DNA of 63,267 nt, the filler included, from Collodictyon triciliatum (lineage: Eukaryota), in assembly GCA_043381765.1 (NCBI GenBank). It is 4 parts of 4 records of this genome, joined end to end, with 100 filler letters (N's around TTAATTAATTAA, not from the genome) between each part and the next. Parts side by side here need not be neighbours in the genome. Positions count along the whole stretch, not along the records: positions 49,126 to 59,581 come from JBHJMP010001112.1; 3 more parts are not named here. One strand, 5' to 3'. Both the position numbers and the translations under genes were made by a program. Positions 3,001 through 59,476 of the stretch are shown here, in pieces (the stretch's first letter is position 1; each line of letters begins with the position of its first letter). Under the pieces are notes generated by a model. The model saw only the letters and a program-made list of their open reading frames with translations, searched no databases and was not told the DNA's origin.

Positions 3001-6000
3001 TTGGAAAGACGAATACTATCATAAATTGATATCTGATATAAAGGTGCTTTTATTCCCTTATTTTTATTTTCCTTCGTTCAATTTTCTTTGTAATGATACC
3101 CTCTTTATTCCGTCCTTTATTAATATCGCGAGTATTAACCAATTCATAAAACTTAGCTTGGAGTTTCAACAGCTTTCATCCGAGCTTCAAAGTACACATA
3201 TGGTTTTGAGCCACTTAGGCAGATATATATGGAAAACAAAGCACTTGATATTCAACAAATCCAAGCTGATGCTGAGAGTGGACTTCGCAATCTGGACTCG
3301 TTTAGACAAGAACTGGATAAATATGCGAAGCAGAAAGAGAGTATACAGGAGTGAGTAATGAATTGCAACATGCTTTGAATCGTCGATGCATCATACATAA
3401 CTCAACCAATATCTTGAAAATAGACTCGTTGTTGTTCGCGACGTTGGTATTATACGAGTAGAGAGCAAAACACTGAAGGAGACTTTTGCTCCGTCACCTG
3501 AGAAGTATTCGAATATTCTCTTGTTTTCATTCCTATAGTATTTTGCTATTCATTGAAGTACCGCTCTGACGCTGCATCTAACTACAGCTGCATCCGATTG
3601 ATTCATGGCTTGCTTCCTATTCTGGCAGCGTCTAAGTGCAAAAACTTATTGGATGAAATTCACAAATTTAATGACCAACTATCTACGAAACCCCAAAATG
3701 TAAGAAGAAAAAACCTACATCCCATAACAATTTCATTCTATCTCAGAAAAAAAAAACGTGAATTGTCCAGTGGGAATCTGTTTCATATCAATATATCCTC
3801 TTAGGTCGAAACATTCGTCGAATTTCTTGGCTTCTTGAACGAAATCAGTGAAAAACAGAACGATATCAAACTGAGGTTTGATGAGGTCAAGTCACATTAT
3901 ACCATGATGGATGATTATACAGTGAAAGTTCCAGCAGAGGATAAGGCGTCGTACCAGATGCTGAGGCCTCAACTGAATAAGCTGATAACCTCGATTGCCT
4001 CCTCAGAAAGATCACGGGATGAAAGTGTGTACATCAACCAACAAATGTTGTTTGTCTTGTTAGTCACATGCCGACTCTGCTTAACCAGATGCAGCAAACA
4101 TTTCCATTGAAACGAATGCACTTTTTTTTCAAACTTAAATGAATAGAAATCAATCTAATATATTGAATTTATATAGATATTACTCATTTCAACCAAGAAT
4201 TGGACAATAAGATATCTGAGTTGAAGGGCAACATCATGGAGATTCGGCTGAAAGCCCTAGACCCTATGATATCTGAGGCTGATGCTGACCCGAATATGGT
4301 CTTGGGGTATCTGAATGGCGTTTTCGACAATTTGAACGCCGAGAACGACAAAGCTGCAAAATATACTGAGTATCAAAAGGCTCTTCAAGTAAACACCACA
4401 CAATTGCTTGTGCTTAAATTCCTGAACGATATTTGTCTTTTTTTTTAAAAAAAATAAAATTGACTCCCTTATCGAAATTTGCAAATCTCTTGCAATCTAC
4501 AATTATTTAGGTGGCTGTTTCACAGTATGAAGAACTTGTAGAAACTACTAAGGACCTCCAATTAAAGAAAAAGTTATGGCAAGCTATTTTTGAATGGCAA
4601 GCGAAGAGGGAAGAATGGGGAACTACTCCTTTTGATGCTATTGACCCAGAGGAGATGAGCACCCAGGTTCATCAGTATGCCACAATAGCTTTCCAAGCAG
4701 AAAGGGAAATGCCTGACAACCCTGTCGGCCCGAAGTTTAGACGAACGGTTTGTTGACTAATTTTCCTAGGAATTATAACACCATCTCTTGGTCAACCATC
4801 GTGGTCATTACCTTTTTTTTCTTTTTTTATGGATCAACTTTTTTTTTCAAAAAAAAAATATATCATCTAATCCTAATGGTTCTTTTTCTATTTAATAGAT
4901 TGACGAGTTCAAAGGCACTCTTCCCGTTATCGTCAACTTGAGAAACCCATCCCTGAAAGAGCGCCATTATATCAGGATTGAAGACGCTCTACAAAAGAAA
5001 ATATTCAAAACAAATATTACCGTGGGCCAGCTGATTGATATGAAAGTGAATGACCACAAGGAACTGATTGAAACTGTTTCCAATGAGGCTACAAACGAAG
5101 CAGTTCTCGAAGAAAGCTTGGCAAAAGTATGTATATTTCACCCTCCTCACATACTAGGATATAAATTGAATTAAAAATTACTTTCTGAATAGGCACCAGT
5201 CAGAGTTTAAAATTTTTATCTTTTACTTTTGGTTTTCCGAAACAGATTATTAACCTCTGGGACCATACCGAATTCACGTTGCTTCCTTATAAAGACTACA
5301 AAGATGTGTACATTCTTGGTGGTGTAGATGAAATCATTCAGCAAGCCGAAGAGAGCCAAGTGCAAGTGTCAACCATCATGGGCTCACGCTTCGTTGGTGC
5401 TATTCGAAAGGTTGTGAAGCGTACATACTGATTACAAACTGTGAAAGTTTCCAATATGTCCCTGTTAATAAATAAATAATATTCTATTGATTTATAACTT
5501 GTTGTCTATAGGAGGTTGAGAAAATGGAGACCAGTCTAGACTTATTCAGTGATACTCTTGAAGAATGGCTTAACTGCCAAAGAAGCTGGATGTACCTCGA
5601 AAGTATCTTTTCAGCCCCTGACATCCAAAGGCAACTTCCTAACGAGAGCAAGATGTTTTCTGGAGTTGACCGGTCATGGAAGGATATTATGAAGAAGACG
5701 AGCGAATATTCAAATGCACTGCGGGTTAGACTATTAAACCTAATCATAAAATCATACTATGAATTGAGTTTGTTGTGAAAGAAAGCCCCTTCAATTAAAT
5801 CCGTATCATCAATCTAGTCCGGGACTCTCCCTGGCTTATTGGAAACATTTCAAAAGAACAACGAAATATTGGAACGCGTTCAAAAGAATTTAGAGGAATA
5901 TCTCGAAACGAAAAGAATGGCATTTCCAAGGTTCTATTTCTTGTCCAACGACGAACTCTTGGAAATTTTGGCTCAAACAAAAAATCCGCATGCTGTGCAG

Positions 6001-17922: not shown

Positions 17923-19473
17923 ATGGGTTTGCTTACAATACTGAAGAAGGTCAAGGCCAAAGAAAAGGAAATGCGCCTGCTCGTCCTGTAAGCTCCTTGG
18001 CAAGCTTTGCTCTTCCATCCTTTATTCTTCTTTTTTTTCTTTTTTTTCTTTTTTTTCTTTTTTTTTCTTTTTTTTTTTTTTTTTTTTTATTCTACAAGTG
18101 TCGTCTCTTACCTGTTAAAAAGAGTCTTGCTGGGTCGCGTCGACGCCTCCAAAATAATGCTGTTTTGTGAACTTTTCCCAGTGGCCTGGATAACGCAGGG
18201 AAAACAACCATCGTCAAGCGGATCAACGGGGAAGACATCCATACGATCAGCCCGACTCTGGGCTTCAACATCAAGACGTTCACTTTCCCAACCGACGGAA
18301 CTGAGTTAGAATTATTTTTTTCCTTTATTCGATTCAAAGAGTTTGTTTGAATCATGATGATTAAAGAGAGAGAAAGAGAGAAAACAAAAGAGTAAAAACA
18401 ACAGAAATATTACTAAGAACAAACAAAACAAAAACATGCGAAGAACATATAGAAATGCTCCATACATGAATAAATATTGGGACTAGGGAGGCTTCTGTAC
18501 AATTATGCTTTGTGCCTAACGACACCCGCATACCCCAAAGATACAAACTCAACGTGTGGGACGTCGGAGGCCAGACAACCATCCGCTCGTATTGGCGTAA
18601 CTACTTTGAACTGACGGAGGGGCTTATCTGGGTGGTCGACAGTGCGGACCGGCGACGCCTTGCAGACTGTAGGGAGGAACTTCGGAAGCTTCTACTCCAG
18701 GAGGTAATTTTCTTTCTTTCTCATGGTCTTGGTACTTTCCCTTGTGTTGAACTATCGATTCTTTCGAGAGAAAAAAAAAACACAACTCATAAATCAGAAA
18801 CTGGCTGGTGCCACACTTCTCGTCTTTGCAAATAAACAAGACCTAAGTGGGGCCCTTTCTTCCGAGGAAATTGCTAAGGTCAACACTGGCCCTTATCTAT
18901 TCTTTTTCTTTTCTTCTTTTCTTTGTTCTTTTTTAACTGTTCCTTTTAACTGTTCTTTTTTCTTTTCTTTTTTCTTTTCTTTTTTCTTTTCTTTTTTCTT
19001 TTCTTTTTTCTTTTCTTTTTTCTTTTCTTTTTTCTTTTCTTTTTTCTTTTCTTTTTTCTTTGTTCTTTGTTTCTTTTCCTTTTTCTTCTCTCATTACGGC
19101 CATTTTTATTTATCAGTCAAAGTTCACTCTTTCTAAGGATATATTGAAAATTATATGTTACTTTAAAAATGAATCTGTTGCTGATGGAATCATATGTTAT
19201 CTCATTTAATTGTTAAATTCACCCATATGTGAATGCACTATAGCTTTCAGCTTAATTTTTGCTCTCTCGATGACTATAATTTTTTTTTTTTAAAAAAAAA
19301 AAAAAGACCCACACATATATCCTTGCTTAATTCTCTAGTTTTTGGAGCTGGACCAGATAGACGCGCGACACTGGCACATTCAAAGTTGCAGCGCAGTCAC
19401 AGGAGAAGGGCTGGAACAGGGGTTTGGGTGGATCGTGAGGGATATTGCTGCTCGCATTTACATGCTTGAGTAG
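17923..19473 (+). CDS. ARL2: ADP-ribosylation factor-like protein 2 (5 exons)
   Basis: [85 protein letters not shown]...[10 protein letters not shown]-stop. Confidence 0.95.
18315..18339 (-). mobile_element. Micro-element copy C (CTTTGAATCGAATAAAGG-A7) in ARL2 intron 2
   Basis: Exact reverse complement of the 18-nt core at 56311 and 58332. It starts 10 nt after the first base of the donor. Flanks GTTAGAATTA / GTTTGAATCA may be a decayed TSD. Confidence 0.6.
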
Positions 19474-20111: not shown

Positions 20112-20143
20112 TTTTTTTTTTTTCACTTTATTCAATTCAAAGT
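20112..20143 (-). mobile_element. Variant micro-element copy D (ACTTTGAATTGAATAAAGTG-A12), possibly the 3' end of a longer retroelement remnant
   Basis: Matches the core with one CpG-type transition and one extra base, followed by a 12-nt A tract. No TSD found. Confidence 0.4.
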
Positions 20144-23197: not shown

Positions 23198-24308
23198 TCA
23201 TAAGTCTGGTCCAGAGAGTGATTTAATCCCGGCGACGAGCGTCTGTGTGGAAGGACGAGTGGTTTTCTCTGTATCCCACGCTTTCCGAACCAAATCAGCG
23301 TAAGCTGCCGGCATGTCCGAAGGGATTTCAGGTCTCACCCCACGGCCAAGGTCATTCCCTACCTAATTGTGCCTCCTATTAGTATTATCATATTCTCACA
23401 AATACACGAGTAATATATAATATGGTGTACACTTGCGTGTATAGTAAGATGACAAAAATAGCAAGAGATAGATAATCGTGTGAAAAATAGGTGGATGACC
23501 AAAAGGAAAAATCGAAAATCGTGTGAAAAATATAAATCGAACGATACAAGAGTAAGATAAATTGATGAATGGAAAGCTTGTGCAAGTTCTTTTTCACCAA
23601 CCTTAACACTATTATATCCTTCAAAGGGAATTTTACAAGTCCATACTTCCCACATGATGACACCAATACTGTATATATCACTTTCGGCTGTTAGATGCCC
23701 ACCGGCAAACAAAATAGGATCTCTGTAGATTATGCTGTACGAATCGATAGATTGGGTGCGAAACTCTGCCTTGAACTTTTCGAAGCCAAACTCCCCCAAG
23801 CAAACATTCCATACAGCATCAATCTTAATTTACATAGTAAAAAATTCAAACAATGGATTTTCACTTAGTTTGGAGGAAATATAAAATTGGAAGAAAGAAA
23901 TGGGTCTAATAAGTGCGAGGTTAACCTGGCTAATATTCGTAATAATAATCATGATGATGATGATGATGATGATGATGGTAAGAATAACAATGCATATATT
24001 CATGATATCTCCTGACGAGCAAGAGTAGATGGCCAATTGTTTAACTTATACAATGAATTTAGATACCCATATTGAAGCTGGGCGGATGTTAAAATGAAAG
24101 ATGGCTGGCTGTCTCGAGTGGAGATATTGGACACCCTCTATAATTTGAATGAGTATGGAATATTTTATTCTGGGTGTCAGCCTACTTTTCGAATTCTTCA
24201 AGACTGCATCCAGTGTCCCCATAGAGAAATAATTCGAGACGAAGCAAAAGTTTGTGCTGTCAAAACTGGCCCCAATTACGGGCATAATGTTTGGGTGATG
24301 AATTTCGC
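23198..24308 (-). CDS. Paralogous TKL-like pseudokinase (5' exon lost at segment end)
   Basis: Same intron positions and motifs as its neighbour: HPNIMPVIGASFDS, FHFNIRPASIW, LGEFGFEKFKAEFRTQS, YRDP, SDIYSIGVIMWEVWT; TGA at 23198-23200. Confidence 0.82.
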
Positions 24309-24735: not shown

Positions 24736-25827
24736 TAAAAATTAAGAAATAATCAGAGTATGTTTCTTTGTTTCTTTGTTTCTTTATTTGAGAGAATGGC
24801 AATTTCATAGTTTGACCTTATCTATACCACGCGCTGTGAAAGACGTGGTGAGACCTTGGATACTAGCAGACCAGGCTTACCAATCGAAAAATTGGTACGC
24901 TCTTCCAAGTTGAGAAATAATCGGAAATGAAAAGCCAAGCAACAGAGTCAGCCATACCCATTTAAATTAATAAAAATGGAAATTAAAAATATATGATGTT
25001 TCCTTCACATATGGGCGACCATAAATTCGTCTATCTATATAATATAACTAATAATCAATTATCTTCATTCTAAACAATTTGTGACAACTATACATCAGCA
25101 AATTCCAAGGTGTTTGCAAAGAACCCACTATTTAAGCGCAACGGCCGTTACTTGTATTCCTACTTTGGCCAGCCCATTTCTTTCATAGAAATGATATTAA
25201 TTAAGAAATCCTCGAACGGAAAAAGAGCTGGGATGTCAACGCGTTAATTTCCAGAACAGCGTGTATGAATTGAATTATTCAAACCCGCCTGATTGATTGG
25301 CCGCTTCATTTCCGAGGCCCTGCTCTTGAGCACGCCAAGCAGCCAGCTACTTGCGCCCGAGTTAGATCTGTCTGTTGCGTAGTAGGCCATGAGGCCAATC
25401 ACTTGCAAGGCATCATCGACAAGGCAAAGCATTCAGCTGCAGCAAAAGCTGATCTTTCTAAGCATCGCACTGAGCGCCTCGCTAACCTTCAAAACCATTC
25501 TCAAGACATAAAACAGGATCCGCGGTGACTGGCAAGCGTGAAGCCGAACTCCTCTGACCTCGCAGCGCAATTGAGTATCCGGTATCTATTTTTTTTTTTT
25601 TGTTGGCCCTAATTAACAATGAAATATATAAATCTGTATAACAAGTAAGATAGGAACAATTAAAAAAAAGAAAAGAATAGAAAAAGAACGCAAAAAAAAA
25701 AACCCCCACTGTTATGATCTAGAAAAAGAATCCTTTGAAGCAAATAAAGGGAAAAAAAAGATCTAGAAAAAGACGAAGGAATAACAGAGACTCGCCCAAT
25801 TACACAGGACGCACATATCCGCAGCCC

Positions 25828-53135: not shown

Positions 53136-56100
53136 TTACCAGTCCCCAGACGGTGCGATAGTTGCGTTGGGCGCCGTGTTTGTGACTGGCGCGGGTGTCC
53201 TCTTTCTTGCATAAAACATATCGTATGTCCGGCCTCCGTACGTGTATGACTTTTGGCGGTCTTCGAACTCGATGTCTGCATCGTCTCCAATCAGGCCGCG
53301 CGTGACATGAGACACATTGATGCATCCAGGCGTCCCGTTTGATTCCATCTTGGATGCAACGTTGACATTCTCTCCCCAGATGTCAAAGACCTGAGTGAAG
53401 GAAGCGATGTGAATTGTTAGTGCCTGCGGTATGCTTGGGCACTTGCGGCGACTCAAGTAGCCAATCATTTTTCAAAAGATAAAAAAAAAATCAATATGTT
53501 AAACAGATAAGCATACGAATAATGTCTGTCTTTTTAAAGTTTAATGGAAGCTTTTGCGCGCGGTTGTTGATATAAAAAAAATACATAGAAATATACGTCA
53601 TTTATTGCTTGTAATATATAAACGCGCATAGGAAAATGAATTGCTCCTTTTTTTTCTCTTTTTCATTTTTCGTACCATCTTGCTCAATCCAACGATGCCA
53701 CCTACAACCGGGCCACTGTGAACTCCGATGCGCACATTCACACGAAGTCCTTCAATCTCAGGGTACGCTGCAACAATCGAAGCCATCGCAAGCCCCATTT
53801 CTACTGTTACCTGGTAAACGAATGCCCCAACAAGAAAACACCTTTAATTCAATCTCCAAGACTTATTTATACATACATAAATCCCTCGTTATGAACCCAC
53901 GAAACTCCTCTCCATGGATTGATTCAGTCTTTCGCAGGCTTGTTCAACCGGAAAAAAAATGATTATAGAAACAATAGGAACCTTGGCATGGTCTGGACGA
54001 GGATATGGGAGCCCGCAGACTACCATATATGCGTCGCCTGTCAACCATTATTTATTTATCGTTAGTTGTTTTCGTAATTATAATATGTTTTTAAAAAATA
54101 TGGATGAAACATTTAAAACACTGTTTCACATAGTCTTAAATGCTACTACTCTAAAATCCTTACCAATCGTCTTGATTTTTTCCAATCCTTTTTCTTCGGC
54201 GAATGAATCGAACTGTTACGATAGGTAAGATGGTACATAAATAAGGTATTGACATCCCCTTGATTGGGCCCAATGTTTGGAAGAATACAAAATGAGGAGG
54301 TATATTGAATGAGGGGGAAAAATCCAAAATGAAATGAAAAATACCTGGCAAAAGAGGTTATTGAGCATGGTAACGATGCTGCGCGCGTCCAACTTAGATG
54401 ACAAGACAGTGAAACTGTTGGGTTATTTATTGGTTATGATTCAGTTCCTTAAAAGAAAAAACAAAAACAAAAACAAAAAAGGGGGTAATGCTTGGGTTTT
54501 AAAACGGTGGAATTGGTGAAAATCCATACCCGACAATGTCAGCGAACAAAACAGAGGCATTATCGTAGGAATCAATTAACCGCCCGTCTCCACCTCTCAT
54601 CTTGTCAATTACAGCTTCAGGAAGGATATTGTCTAAATTTCAAGAAAATTGGGAAACAATCAGCTTGCTCCTTTAAACATTAATAAAATAAAATAAAACC
54701 GAAAAATAGACATAAGAGATGGACATGGCTTATTTTGCTAGGTATTGCTTACGCAAAAGTCTCTCCGATTCCTCTCGCTGTTTGATGACTTTAGCTCTTT
54801 CTTCATCGGCCATGTGGGACATAAGGAATTCACACCTAGTCATTAAAAAAAATGTGTAAATATGAGTCTGTCACCCCAGAACAGTCATAGTACAGTCAGT
54901 TACCGATTGTGCTTCTCGACCATTCCAGCAGTCACTTGGCCAAACAAGGTGATGGTCGCATAGAATAGAATGGCGTGGACATCAAACTCTTTCATGTTAA
55001 AGAAGATGCAGAACAGCTAGATGGATTCGAGGTGTCGATTAGAATCTATGAGCACGGAATTATGGTTGTCTTTGAAGTAACATCCGTGGGTGTAGTTAAC
55101 TATTCGCCAGAGATAAAGGTTTTAAACATAGAATTACAGCGAATATCCCTAGTGTGAGCATGACGATGGCATTGGAGACAACGTATGGGATTCGCGAGCT
55201 CATGAAAGTCAAAATTGAAAAGATCTGCGTGATTTGGAAATAGAAGCGGACCACGGTTGACGTGTCCATCCTGTATTGAAAGACATAAAATATTATGAGT
55301 TGCTTTTCATATCCAGTTCTATGCTTCCATTTTTCTTTAAATGTGTCAAATATGTCAGGAAAACTGAAAAAAAATCATGCCCGTTGCATTGGCAAACCTG
55401 TAATAAATAAGCAGGCATAAAAGAACCATGTGCACACTAATCACACTGTAGACATTCATCAGATATCCCATATCAGGCTTCAGCTTGGTAACACCGATTA
55501 ATGCCATCTAGAAAGTTTTATTAAATGTAAATAAATAAATAAAAAATACCACAAAATTGCAGATTGGTAGAGTAATAGTTTAACAAAATTCCCAGTGGCA
55601 CATAGCGTGCTTTAACGATGGTGAACAATGTGTAGTCTTGATATTAACAGAGTATGAATAACCTGGAATAACGCACAAACACCCATGGAGAGGTAATAGA
55701 GGGAAATATCGTGCGAAGCTGTGGAGAAACGGAGAATTCCAGGGCCAACCGCCATCATTATACCGATGTAAAGGAGAGTGACATTTATCATCACTTCGTT
55801 TCCTTTCCGCATTTGGGATTCACGAAACTCCTTTTCAACATGAGGCTCTGTAAAGGTCAGGATAGTTCCATGTACCAGTTTGATTTTGGATGACAGGACA
55901 GCATCAAGCTCGTCATTCCTCTTCTTCATAGCTTCACGAGCCTTACGCTTCTTTCTCTCTGCAGCAGAAAGTTTCTTATCTCCGTTGTTTTCGTCTAGAT
56001 ATGGTTTGATATTACTCTAATGGTACTTTATGGCGAATCATATGGATTTAACCTCATACTCTTCTTATTTTCCTGTTGTAAAATAGAATTCTGTTGTTGT

Positions 56101-59100
56101 TGTTGTTGTTTTGTTTGAAAGAGAAAAAAAGGAACTCACCTTCAGTCTCTTGATTCCCAACTCCATTTCCAGCCCCACCATTAGTTCCGTCTTGATTTGC
56201 TTGTTTGCTGAGGTCCTCGGCCGATGAGACTGATTGCGGAAGTGACTTCCTATGGGGTTAAGTGAAAAAAAATTGAATGATGGTTAAAATATATATTGAA
56301 CGTGATTATACTTTGAATCGAATAAAGGAAAAAATATTGAACGTGATTATTTTACGCATATCAAGTGATAAAGATTTATTATATAAATTAATTATAAAAT
56401 CTTGCGAATGTATAGATCATACAACAATCCACCAGAACTTACTTTCCCACTAAGTAGTACGTCTGCATCAAGCCTTTTCCCTTCACTTCTATTTTGGGTC
56501 TCTGCTCAAACTCAAAGTGAGACTTGAGGAGCTCTTGGAATTCAGATGTCACATGAATCCTCCCTGTCTCTCCATGTGATTGCATGCGACTTGCTTTATG
56601 TTGATTCAAAAGGAATCCATGTTAGTCTGGTAGCCAAATTCCGTGTGAAAAATAAAGTATGTATCTTGTCTTGCCTAGCTTTTTCCATGTAGCAATTTCA
56701 TATTTTTTTCGTGGCGATTAAATCTAAGTGAAATGACCGTGGATTTCATGATTCATTATGATTAAAATGTCTTGCCTGTGTTTACAGAGTCTCCCCAAAG
56801 GTCGTAAAGAAACTTAGTTTTACCTGGGTTATAATGTGCTTAATGAAAGTCCATTCAAGTGCATAGTTCCATACTTGAAAAAGATATACAATTCAGCTCT
56901 TCATTAATATGTATATTCGCATCTTTCATTGATATGTAAGATCTGTTCATATGATAACAAAAATGATGGTATTTCGGCCCTCATACCTATGACTCCAGCC
57001 ACTACAGGGCCTGTATGTATTCCAATTGTTATTTGGATGGTTCTTCGCTTCATCACTGATAACCCTTCCACCTGAAAAAATTGCAGTTATTCTTCCATGA
57101 ATAATAATTAATGGCTATTTCATCATTGAGAGCCCCTCTATTCTATTGTTGATTGCTGGAGGGGAAAAATACTTACAGCTCGGAGCATATCGAGTGCAAA
57201 TGATGCCATCTTGCGCGCGCTGTGAATCGCTGGTATTGGTTCCGGTAACCCACATCCTACAAGGTAACCTGAACGACGATATGATAAAATATTCATAATT
57301 ATTCTCTTTTAATTTCTTCTTTCATAATATTAAAGAGATCCGATGAATGGAACATATGCGGTATGACAATATGTTTATGAATCATACCGTCTCCAATTGT
57401 CTTGATTTTCTCGATCTTGTAGGCCTGTGTAAGCCTATCAAAATTTCCCACAATTTCACCAAGCAGCGTAACAGCCTCTGTAGGAGGCAAAGAACGTGCG
57501 ATTTCGGTCCACCCGACAAGGTCGGCGAAAAGAACAGTGACATGACTGTATCCATCAGATATAACCTGGGGTGAGCAAAACCATCAGTGCATATTTTCTT
57601 TTTTTTTTTTTTTCCCCTCATCATTTCCGAGAGCCTTGAAATGTTTTGCATCACTTTATTGGTATGGTTATCAATTATTTCCTCACTTCCTCTCCGTCCA
57701 TCAATCTGCGTGCAATTTTATTAGGAAGAATGTTAAGCAGTAGCTTTTCCTACATTTCCAAGTAACCGTAAGGAAACAGGGCTGCGCTACAACTTTATCC
57801 TATTTATGAGATTGTCAGCACGAATGAATCGTGTATTACCGTAACCATCTTTTCTTTGACGACTTCTTCAGTGTGTTTCAGAATACCAGCACGACGAATC
57901 TGAATCATGTTGTGTTGTATTAAGTATCTCTTCTATATTATATATATATCTACTCGAATGAACGCATAATGACTACCATAATTAAAAAAATCGTTATATC
58001 TAAACAATTCAATCGTTTAATCAGGCACATACATCTTGTCTACGGTTAGCCAGTTCGCTCTTGTAGCAAGTGACCAGCATGGGTCCAGTGGTCATGATAA
58101 TGTAGATGAGATTCTCGAGATAGTCCAAGGGCTCCGTGGTGGGGAAGAGCGAGATGAAGATGAAGTAGATAATGTCAATTATCACAGACAATAGGAGTGC
58201 TTCCTGTGGGTAGGGGGAAAAAAAAGTTGCTCAGATTTTTTTGGGTATTTCGGCTATTAAATCCTCTTTCATGTGTGTGTGAAAGTTCTTTAAGAGGGTG
58301 GATATGAGACTTATTATCCTACGCGAAACGGCTTTGAATCGAATAAAGGGGAAAAAAATCCTACGCGAAACGGGAATCGCAGAGCCATGACAATGGCATA
58401 TTGAGCAATCGTGTACACCACTGAAAGGTAACGAGCATCGGAGATTGTAATCATGTACGGCTCGTCCAAATCAAAGTCGGTAAAGAAGCGGGCCACTCCT
58501 AGTCCCGTTACTTCAAAGATGCCGAGGGCTGCCACCAGAGACATGTGGTAATGATGAATCCATCTACAGCAGGTTTATTTATGAATTATTAGATAAAGAG
58601 GATCTCTAACTTCGACTGCTGTAAAAAATAACAGAGTTGTTCTATATTTGCTGAAAAGAGACACACACAAATACAAAAAAAATGTAACAACGAGGTCATG
58701 GAATAGTCTGGTACTTTTGTCCTAGCATATAGAGGACGATGGCAGTGATGAAGACCATCACGGCGTATGTGAGCATGAGTCCGACTTTCTGGTGAGTGAG
58801 AACATAGAGTCCGACGAAGGAGCTGAGTGCAAAGGCAATAAAGCCGCAAAAGATTTTGTGCATGAGCGTTGAGGAATAGAAGGTCTTTTGGAAATACTCG
58901 TCTTCGAGCGTCTCATCCTAAATGCGGAAAATATCTCATTATTGTTGCTCTTGTCCCCGTGGTTACTGTTTTCTTAATAATTTTGGCTAAAACCATAATG
59001 TATGAACCGTCTGTTTGAATTAACTTACGATAAACTTCATGAAGCGCCCCATCGCGTACTTTGCCTCGACTTCCTTTGCAATATTGGCATCCATTTCTTC

Positions 59101-59283
59101 GACGTTGTCTTTGCGATTCCACACGTTGGACAGATCTCCGATGTCCATCAGCCCGCCGGTGGCTGTGGATGACAGCGACATACGAAGCAGCTTCGCTTCG
59201 TCAACCGGCCCATTTGCCACGCTGCCGCCTGCGTTGCCTTTGGACAGCCCGTAGGGTGATGAGTCATCTTTGAGGTGCGACAT
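53136..59283 (-). CDS. Membrane class III adenylyl cyclase, M1-C-M2-C architecture
   Basis: Two hydrophobic blocks, each followed by NILP and a cyclase domain. Domain 1: FADLVG, EKIKTIGDGY, YDLWGDSVNTASRM, VKGKG. Domain 2: FADIVG, EKIKTIGDAY, FDIWGENVNVASKM. The Lys/Asp pairs indicate ATP specificity. Confidence 0.9.
56310..56333 (+). mobile_element. Micro-element copy A with 17-bp TSD
   Basis: ATATTGAACGTGATTAT (56293-56309) - ACTTTGAATCGAATAAAGGAAAAA - ATATTGAACGTGATTAT (56334-56350). Confidence 0.8.
58332..58357 (+). mobile_element. Micro-element copy B with 16-bp TSD spanning a splice donor
   Basis: ATCCTACGCGAAACGG (58316-58331) - CTTTGAATCGAATAAAGGGGAAAAAA - ATCCTACGCGAAACGG (58358-58373). 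Confidence 0.8.
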
Positions 59284-59476
59284 TTGTAGCTAATCAGCTT
59301 TGATCCTTTTCTGGTCCCAGTTGGTACTTTATCTGCTAGTGACTGGGGGGATTTGATGTGTTCTGCGGTTGGAAAGAGAAAAGAAAAAAATGGTGAGCTC
59401 TTTGGTGAAGTACTGGTCATGATATTGACCGAAAGACAAGTGTATTTTCTATCCTTCTGATAATTGACCGTCTTCT

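Follow-up and report, generated by a model that had tools for sequence, protein, structure and literature searches.

The closest described counterparts of the locus studied here are retrotransposed sequences lying at or near splice sites. In human MET, L1-type insertions at exon 14, comprising 194-254 nt of the element, lead to exon skipping (bioRxiv 10.64898/2026.02.19.706876). In the canine PMEL gene, Merle is caused by an antisense SINEC_Cf at an intron-exon boundary, with transcript evidence for an in-frame insertion of 52 amino acids; the short Merle alleles retain the original site, and splice sites of retrotransposon origin are as a rule less efficient (PMC6091007). Introners are transposons that have turned into introns by drawing their splice sites from their own sequence or from the TSD, and about 5% of the classified ones are non-LTR elements (PMC11282704, PMC12130899). 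Word searches of narrow scope for literature on TSD-copied donors, on duplicated-donor experiments and on the retrotransposons of this protist group returned nothing relevant.

The window analysed here, a stretch of 63,267 nt of Collodictyon triciliatum DNA, contains on its minus strand a gene for a two-block membrane adenylyl cyclase (53136..59283, the 3' limit being approximate), whose first half is defined by 11 RNA-supported introns and whose second half by Pfam and homology. At an exon-intron border within the first membrane block lie two perfect 16-bp copies of one sequence (58358-58373 and 58316-58331, minus strand), with a period of 42 and an insert of 26 nt (58332-58357) between them. 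On the minus strand the order is GCGATTC, then CCGTTTCGCGTAGGAT, the insert TTTTTTCCCCTTTATTCGATTCAAAG, the second CCGTTTCGCGTAGGAT and AATAAG. The upstream copy (58358..58373) is made up of the 9 nt that end the exon (Pro-Phe-Arg) and of GTAGGAT, and holds D1, the donor in use (G of the GT at 58364); the downstream copy (58316..58331), now intronic, holds D2 (G at 58322). The earlier note had claimed that identical donors 42 nt apart arose here from an insertion with its TSD, and the minus-strand sequence bears this out, the two donors being identical from -9 to +7. The same holds for its claim of an open frame between them: the 42 nt that use of D2 would add to the mRNA (58323..58364, minus strand) translate in the exon frame as VGFFSPLFDSKPFR, stop-free. 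By a rough estimate, about 0.003 16-bp repeats within 60 bp are expected by chance anywhere in the window, and a genome search found the duplicated site only once, at G000:C1112.

On the gene strand the insert consists of a T-run and pyrimidines and ends in AG; on the plus strand it reads CTTTGAATCGAATAAAGGGGAAAAAA, with an A-rich 3' tail, GGGGAAAAAA, and it sits at a TT|AT target. With up to 3 mismatches allowed, its 18-mer core matches the window 5 times, where shuffled sequence gives 0.13, and exact copies of its 17-mer core number at least 1,954 across the 75 Mb of the genome (at least 1000 forward and 954 reverse), against 0 for the reversed control. Among 184 distinct core hits fetched as loci, 71 have a perfect TSD of at least 12 bp nearby (range 12-19 bp, 12 bp being the floor of this survey, whose sample was partly enriched by donor-pattern searches). 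The TSD measures 16-17 bp in 39 of the 71 family copies, and 39 of 71 short copies have 5' starts that agree to within one base; the commonest targets (n=71) are ATT|AA, ATT|AT, TTT|AA and AAT|AT. Inserts of the family measure 20-31, 151, 234, 236, 250, 300, 405 and 467 nt, with a common 3' end and a varying 5' end; the longer 5'-truncated copies, of 234-467 nt, have TSDs of 15-19 bp, and the family copies inspected end in A-runs.

A parent for these fragments was found at locus L130, where an ORF matching RVT_1 (E 3e-17) is followed by an ORF matching zf-RVT (E 2e-7), then by a 3' UTR and finally by this tail. An APE-type endonuclease domain (Exo_endo_phos) accompanies RVT_1 in L126, a related LINE whose RT piece shares 80% identity with the query; among the copies examined, no endonuclease domain was found joined to the tail of the insert. 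L126 and L127 represent a second LINE subfamily with another C-terminus and another 3' end, sharing the RT type. A 5'-truncated L1-type LINE inserted by target-primed reverse transcription has a TSD of about 7-20 bp. The cyclase locus shows a 16-bp TSD, an A-rich tail and the 3' end of an RT-encoding parent with varying 5' ends, and a T/A cut preference is seen. Because of the TSDs of the family, the shared 3' end and the position of the tail behind the RT ORFs in L130, the 26-nt insert is the tip of an L1-like LINE, made up of its last 18 nt and a short G/A tail on the plus strand, antisense to the cyclase gene. What had been called a micro-element is a truncated LINE tail and not an element of its own.

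Further traces of such insertions were observed both around the cyclase locus and elsewhere. A second LINE-tail insertion of 24 nt with a 17-bp TSD (56293..56350, plus strand) lies within the cyclase intron 56250-56442 and affects no splice site, and the paralogous cyclase genes L120 and L123 carry their own sense-strand LINE-tail copies in the same intron at other positions. In the window, copies without a clean TSD were found at 18322-18339 and 20125-20142, and a degenerate one with a 14-bp TSD at 25716-25773; at 23474-23532, a 27-nt insert of unlike sequence between perfect 16-bp repeats is probably another short retro-insertion. A sense-strand insert at L149:1492-1550 (G000:C2762), flanked by a 17-bp TSD, places a stop in the middle of a frame otherwise open for at least 991 codons, which encodes a cysteine-rich membrane-like protein, and looks like a recent gene-breaking insertion.

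Set against the described systems, the cyclase insertion shares with the MET and L1-type cases the 3' end of an element with its A-tail, the TSD, the 5' truncation, the T/A-rich cut and the neighbourhood of a splice site (10.64898/2026.02.19.706876), but only 18 nt of the element were copied, the TSD straddles the donor and no damage to splicing was seen. As in Merle, an antisense retro-insertion at a splice boundary presents a leading T-run and the possibility of an in-frame extension (PMC6091007); in Merle, however, an acceptor is concerned and the alternative site lies in the SINE, whereas in the cyclase gene a donor was copied by the TSD and the extension of 14 residues is only predicted. 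The splice site within the TSD, the gene-strand AG at the end of the insert and the high copy number recall introners, yet this copy lies within an old intron and made no new one. The encoded protein resembles the mammalian 12-helix cyclases AC5, AC8 and AC9 in having a class III catalytic domain behind each of its two membrane blocks, but unlike them it belongs to a multi-member protist family, with cyclase activity predicted from sequence.

We then considered which of the two donors represents the ancestral junction. The cyclase gene has a Pfam Guanylate_cyc match, no Pfam match was found for its two membrane exons, and AC5, AC8 and AC9 are the best PDB matches of the family profile. RNA joints carry the gene on past 56442, and the one over intron 56250-56442 extends it into the second membrane and catalytic half; a GC-AG intron at 56594-56775 is also joined in both runs taken as RNA, X1 and X2. 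At the duplicated site, RNA joints define an upstream exon (58365..58563, minus strand) ending in MALRFPFR, and the RNA joint and paralogue alignment define a downstream exon (58033..58203) beginning with EALLLSVIID. The intron between them, as spliced, is a phase-0 GT-AG intron of 161 nt (58204..58364). Eighteen places in the genome match the upstream exon, namely this gene and 17 others, a lower bound for the further family matches. Loci were fetched for 15 of the 18, this gene included. In 14/14 fetched paralogues a phase-0 GT occurs at the same codon and the next exons align without gaps to the exon after 58204, and none of the 14 transcript-derived homologues (P0002-P0015) has extra residues at the junction. 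The D1 product is colinear with all 14 paralogues and all 14 transcript proteins, and aligns to P0002 in one block fewer than the D2 product. Since the junctions of paralogues and transcript homologues match D1, D1 is the ancestral junction as judged by sequence, and the intron would have measured 119 nt before the insertion.

To determine which donor is represented in RNA, four runs, X1 to X4, were compared over 56200-59400, all as assembled contigs. X1 and X2 come from one study with two organism labels and, although not recorded as RNA, were taken as spliced RNA from their 11 GT/GC-AG joints each. Both contain the D1 joint (58202->58364; depth 24.4 in X1 and 6.73 in X2), and no joint at 58322 occurs among those listed for either, at depths of about 7-24 and in contigs, which can drop rare forms. 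This outcome of the junction check comes near to what the earlier note had named as its refutation. X1 also has two non-canonical joints, 57032->57507 and 57421->57501, which may derive from a paralogue or from template switching.

The true test of D2 is X2, which bears the insert but may hold two alleles; X1 has no unspliced contig over this intron. One unspliced contig of X2 (58174-58393), with a depth of 9.49, covers the whole insert plus 158 and 36 letters on either side of it, and is unbroken at 58322. It differs from the window in 6 letters and 2 indels, the placed differences all falling within 58217-58301 and a sixth being unplaced, and the insert is common to two or more alleles with several letter differences in the intron. 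In the downstream exon of X2 (bin 58126-58232), a depth of 18.3 was observed against 18.36 computed from the depths of the D1 joint and of two contigs, that of the exon and the unspliced one; because the listed contigs account for this depth, no room is left for a D2 contig. The extra X2 depth in bins 58233-58446 fits, by our own arithmetic over the listed contigs, contigs from other copies of the insert, and since the downstream exon has no surplus it does not come from a D2 joint. The DNA runs X3 and X4 yielded scattered short contigs, among which record 16 of X3 stops 5 letters into the insert and is too short to bridge it. D2 appears to be a latent donor, used rarely or never, and minor use of it is compatible with the contig data. 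RNA folding did not separate the donors (unpaired fraction 0.25-0.28 for D1 and 0.19-0.45 for D2). In other systems, earlier transcription, exon context and a U-rich stretch behind a donor can each favour it, and D1 has all of these.

The insertion is real and largely ordinary, resembling any truncated L1-type insertion at a splice boundary, and we consider it very probable that it is a tolerated LINE-tail scar, with D1 used, D2 used rarely or never and the protein unchanged. Judging by its hallmarks, an L1-like LINE enzyme would first have nicked the plus strand 7 nt into the intron (att|ATCC), and target-primed reverse transcription on the LINE's own RNA would have covered the A-tail and 18 nt before halting. 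With the second nick at a distance of 16 nt, which places it 9 nt into the exon, repair would have copied the exon end together with the donor. The upstream copy would have stayed joined to the intact exon and been picked by the spliceosome, as the D1 joint in the contigs indicates, and the insert and D2 would leave within the 161-nt intron, giving the same protein as before. The survival of out-of-frame donor duplications in the HECT, RhoGAP and malonyl-transacylase genes described below fits the idea that second donors are mostly ignored.

The main alternative is that D2 serves as a minor or conditional donor and lengthens the cyclase by 14 residues, as had been proposed for the first membrane block. 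Two parts of that proposal stand, the donor having been copied and the addition being in frame; use of the second donor is not supported, D1 being the only donor of this intron among the joints listed for X1 and X2. In favour of such use, D2 would recreate the ancestral intron length of 119 nt, within the 68-473 nt range of the 53 annotated introns. In the AlphaFold model of P0002 (mean pLDDT 68.9, and 79-87 around the junction stretch), the junction, after K212, lies at the start of helix 211-230 behind a four-residue loop, 207-210, and the repeat of Pro-Phe-Arg means that the added residues would lengthen this loop, which may be tolerated. Against it, in addition to the unbroken contig and the lack of spare depth in X2, the insertion-free ancestral state represented by paralogues and transcript proteins has no such residues, and similar events elsewhere show no in-frame excess. 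We therefore hold use of D2 to be quite unlikely.

We regard as very unlikely that the insertion, by setting two weak donors in competition, weakens splicing and leads to more retention and a truncated 235-aa product, read-through meeting a stop two codons past D2. The donor itself lends some weight to the idea, a matrix derived from this genome giving CGC|GTAGGA a score of -2.6, which is under the 5th percentile of -0.3, where all 14 paralogues have AAG|GT; in insert-bearing X2, moreover, unspliced depth exceeds spliced depth at this intron (contigs at 9.49 vs 6.73). However, X2 shows like ratios at introns 58918-59028 (8 vs 7.1) and 57750-57839 (10.6 vs 7), and X1 has unspliced contigs at four introns and none at this one. 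We do not tie the retention to the insert, because partial splicing is general in these libraries.

Use of the terminal AG of the insert as an acceptor, which would create a 33-nt intron and a 9-nt microexon (Pro-Phe-Arg) or a removal in two steps, is highly improbable. The gene-strand T-run and pyrimidine tract with AAG right before the second copy would suit such an acceptor, the product would be in frame, and AAG acceptors occur in 3/53 annotated introns; but the shortest of those introns measures 68 nt, no joint at this AG is found among those listed for X1 and X2, and among the 30 loci examined (of 36 with a GT after the insert) none splits a recognisable exon on the antisense strand. Finally, although the assembly is broken up into 14,576 contigs and the inserted repeat has a high copy number, there is next to no chance that the duplication is an assembly artefact, the misassembly that the earlier note had asked about being refuted by an independent X2 contig that spans the insert with differences of its own, and by a TSD length and target that match the preference of the family.

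To place this locus among other copies, the genome was searched for inserts with a donor-like word behind them (loci examined: 30/36, 27/27, 14/14 and 30/38), counting as events those with the donor inside the TSD and an exon with a database match. Seven further donor-duplicating LINE-tail events were found in recognisable genes among the loci examined: a HECT gene (L136, period 46), a topoisomerase II gene (L165, 42), a C1-domain gene (L179, 42), a malonyl transacylase gene (L180, 47), a RhoGAP gene (L183, 40) and, with weak matches, a Yip1-like gene (L204, 47; E 0.011) and an LRR gene (L197, 41; E 0.012). L179 apart, one of these is in frame and the rest shift the frame. With the cyclase locus included, 3/8 events are in frame against one third expected by chance (binomial P 0.53), a small count with little power, and in a wider sample the figure is 28/71. 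No preference for in-frame copies shows in these eight events, frameshifting ones persist in conserved genes, and the frames lend no support to the view that such insertions are a general route to new isoforms.

Ten candidates whose exon has no database match were left out of this count (periods: L166 42, L174 47, L177 43, L187 40, L188 43, L195 42, L203 41, L207 43, L216 41 and L222 47), 2 of the 10 being in frame. L025 was dropped with its donor probably upstream of the TSD, as were L168 and L171, which are not coding-like or contain a stop, and L205 was not counted apart, having the same target as L197. The GTRAG search (30/38 loci seen) gave no additional recognisable exon. At L195 (G000:C775), a possible donor, AAGCAG|GTAACG, occurs in three copies with two short A-tailed inserts between them, which makes two insertions at one target.

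In the gene with two C1 domains at L179 (G000:C4421, about 5800-5830, minus strand), the TSD ends at the GT, and the native AAG|GTATAA survives in the downstream donor alone, the upstream one having become AAG|GTTTTT. The period of 42 leaves an open frame, and its 14 residues would be added to the linker that connects the two domains. By its sequence, this locus is the best candidate for a real donor shift, ahead of the cyclase locus. Inserts of this kind, numbering thousands, with periods of 39-48 nt and some frames open, might repeatedly copy donors and supply in-frame copies that serve as alternative or replacement donors adding 13-15 residues, L179 being the best candidate; we think this unlikely on the whole. 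If true, L179 would be a snapshot of a splice-site shift by retro-insertion.

None of the 30 loci examined out of the 36 with a GT after the insert contains an exon-splitting copy that could be excised exactly. Two candidates for intron gain were rejected, L164, where the frame is open across the empty site yet the opposite strand has a 409-aa ORF just ahead of it, and L136, which is a donor duplication. The insertion at the cyclase locus is not an introner, because the intron position is common to 14/14 paralogues.

As the data stand, the LINE-tail insertion made an exact copy of a donor, yet the upstream copy is the one seen in RNA. If D2 were used, a 26-base retrotransposon scrap would have given rise to a further form of the protein at a single stroke, and the locus would be a clean, datable example of how an alternative splice site is born. 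The eight loci at which a donor has been duplicated naturally, some in frame and some out, constitute a small, ready test of donor choice in a little-studied protist.
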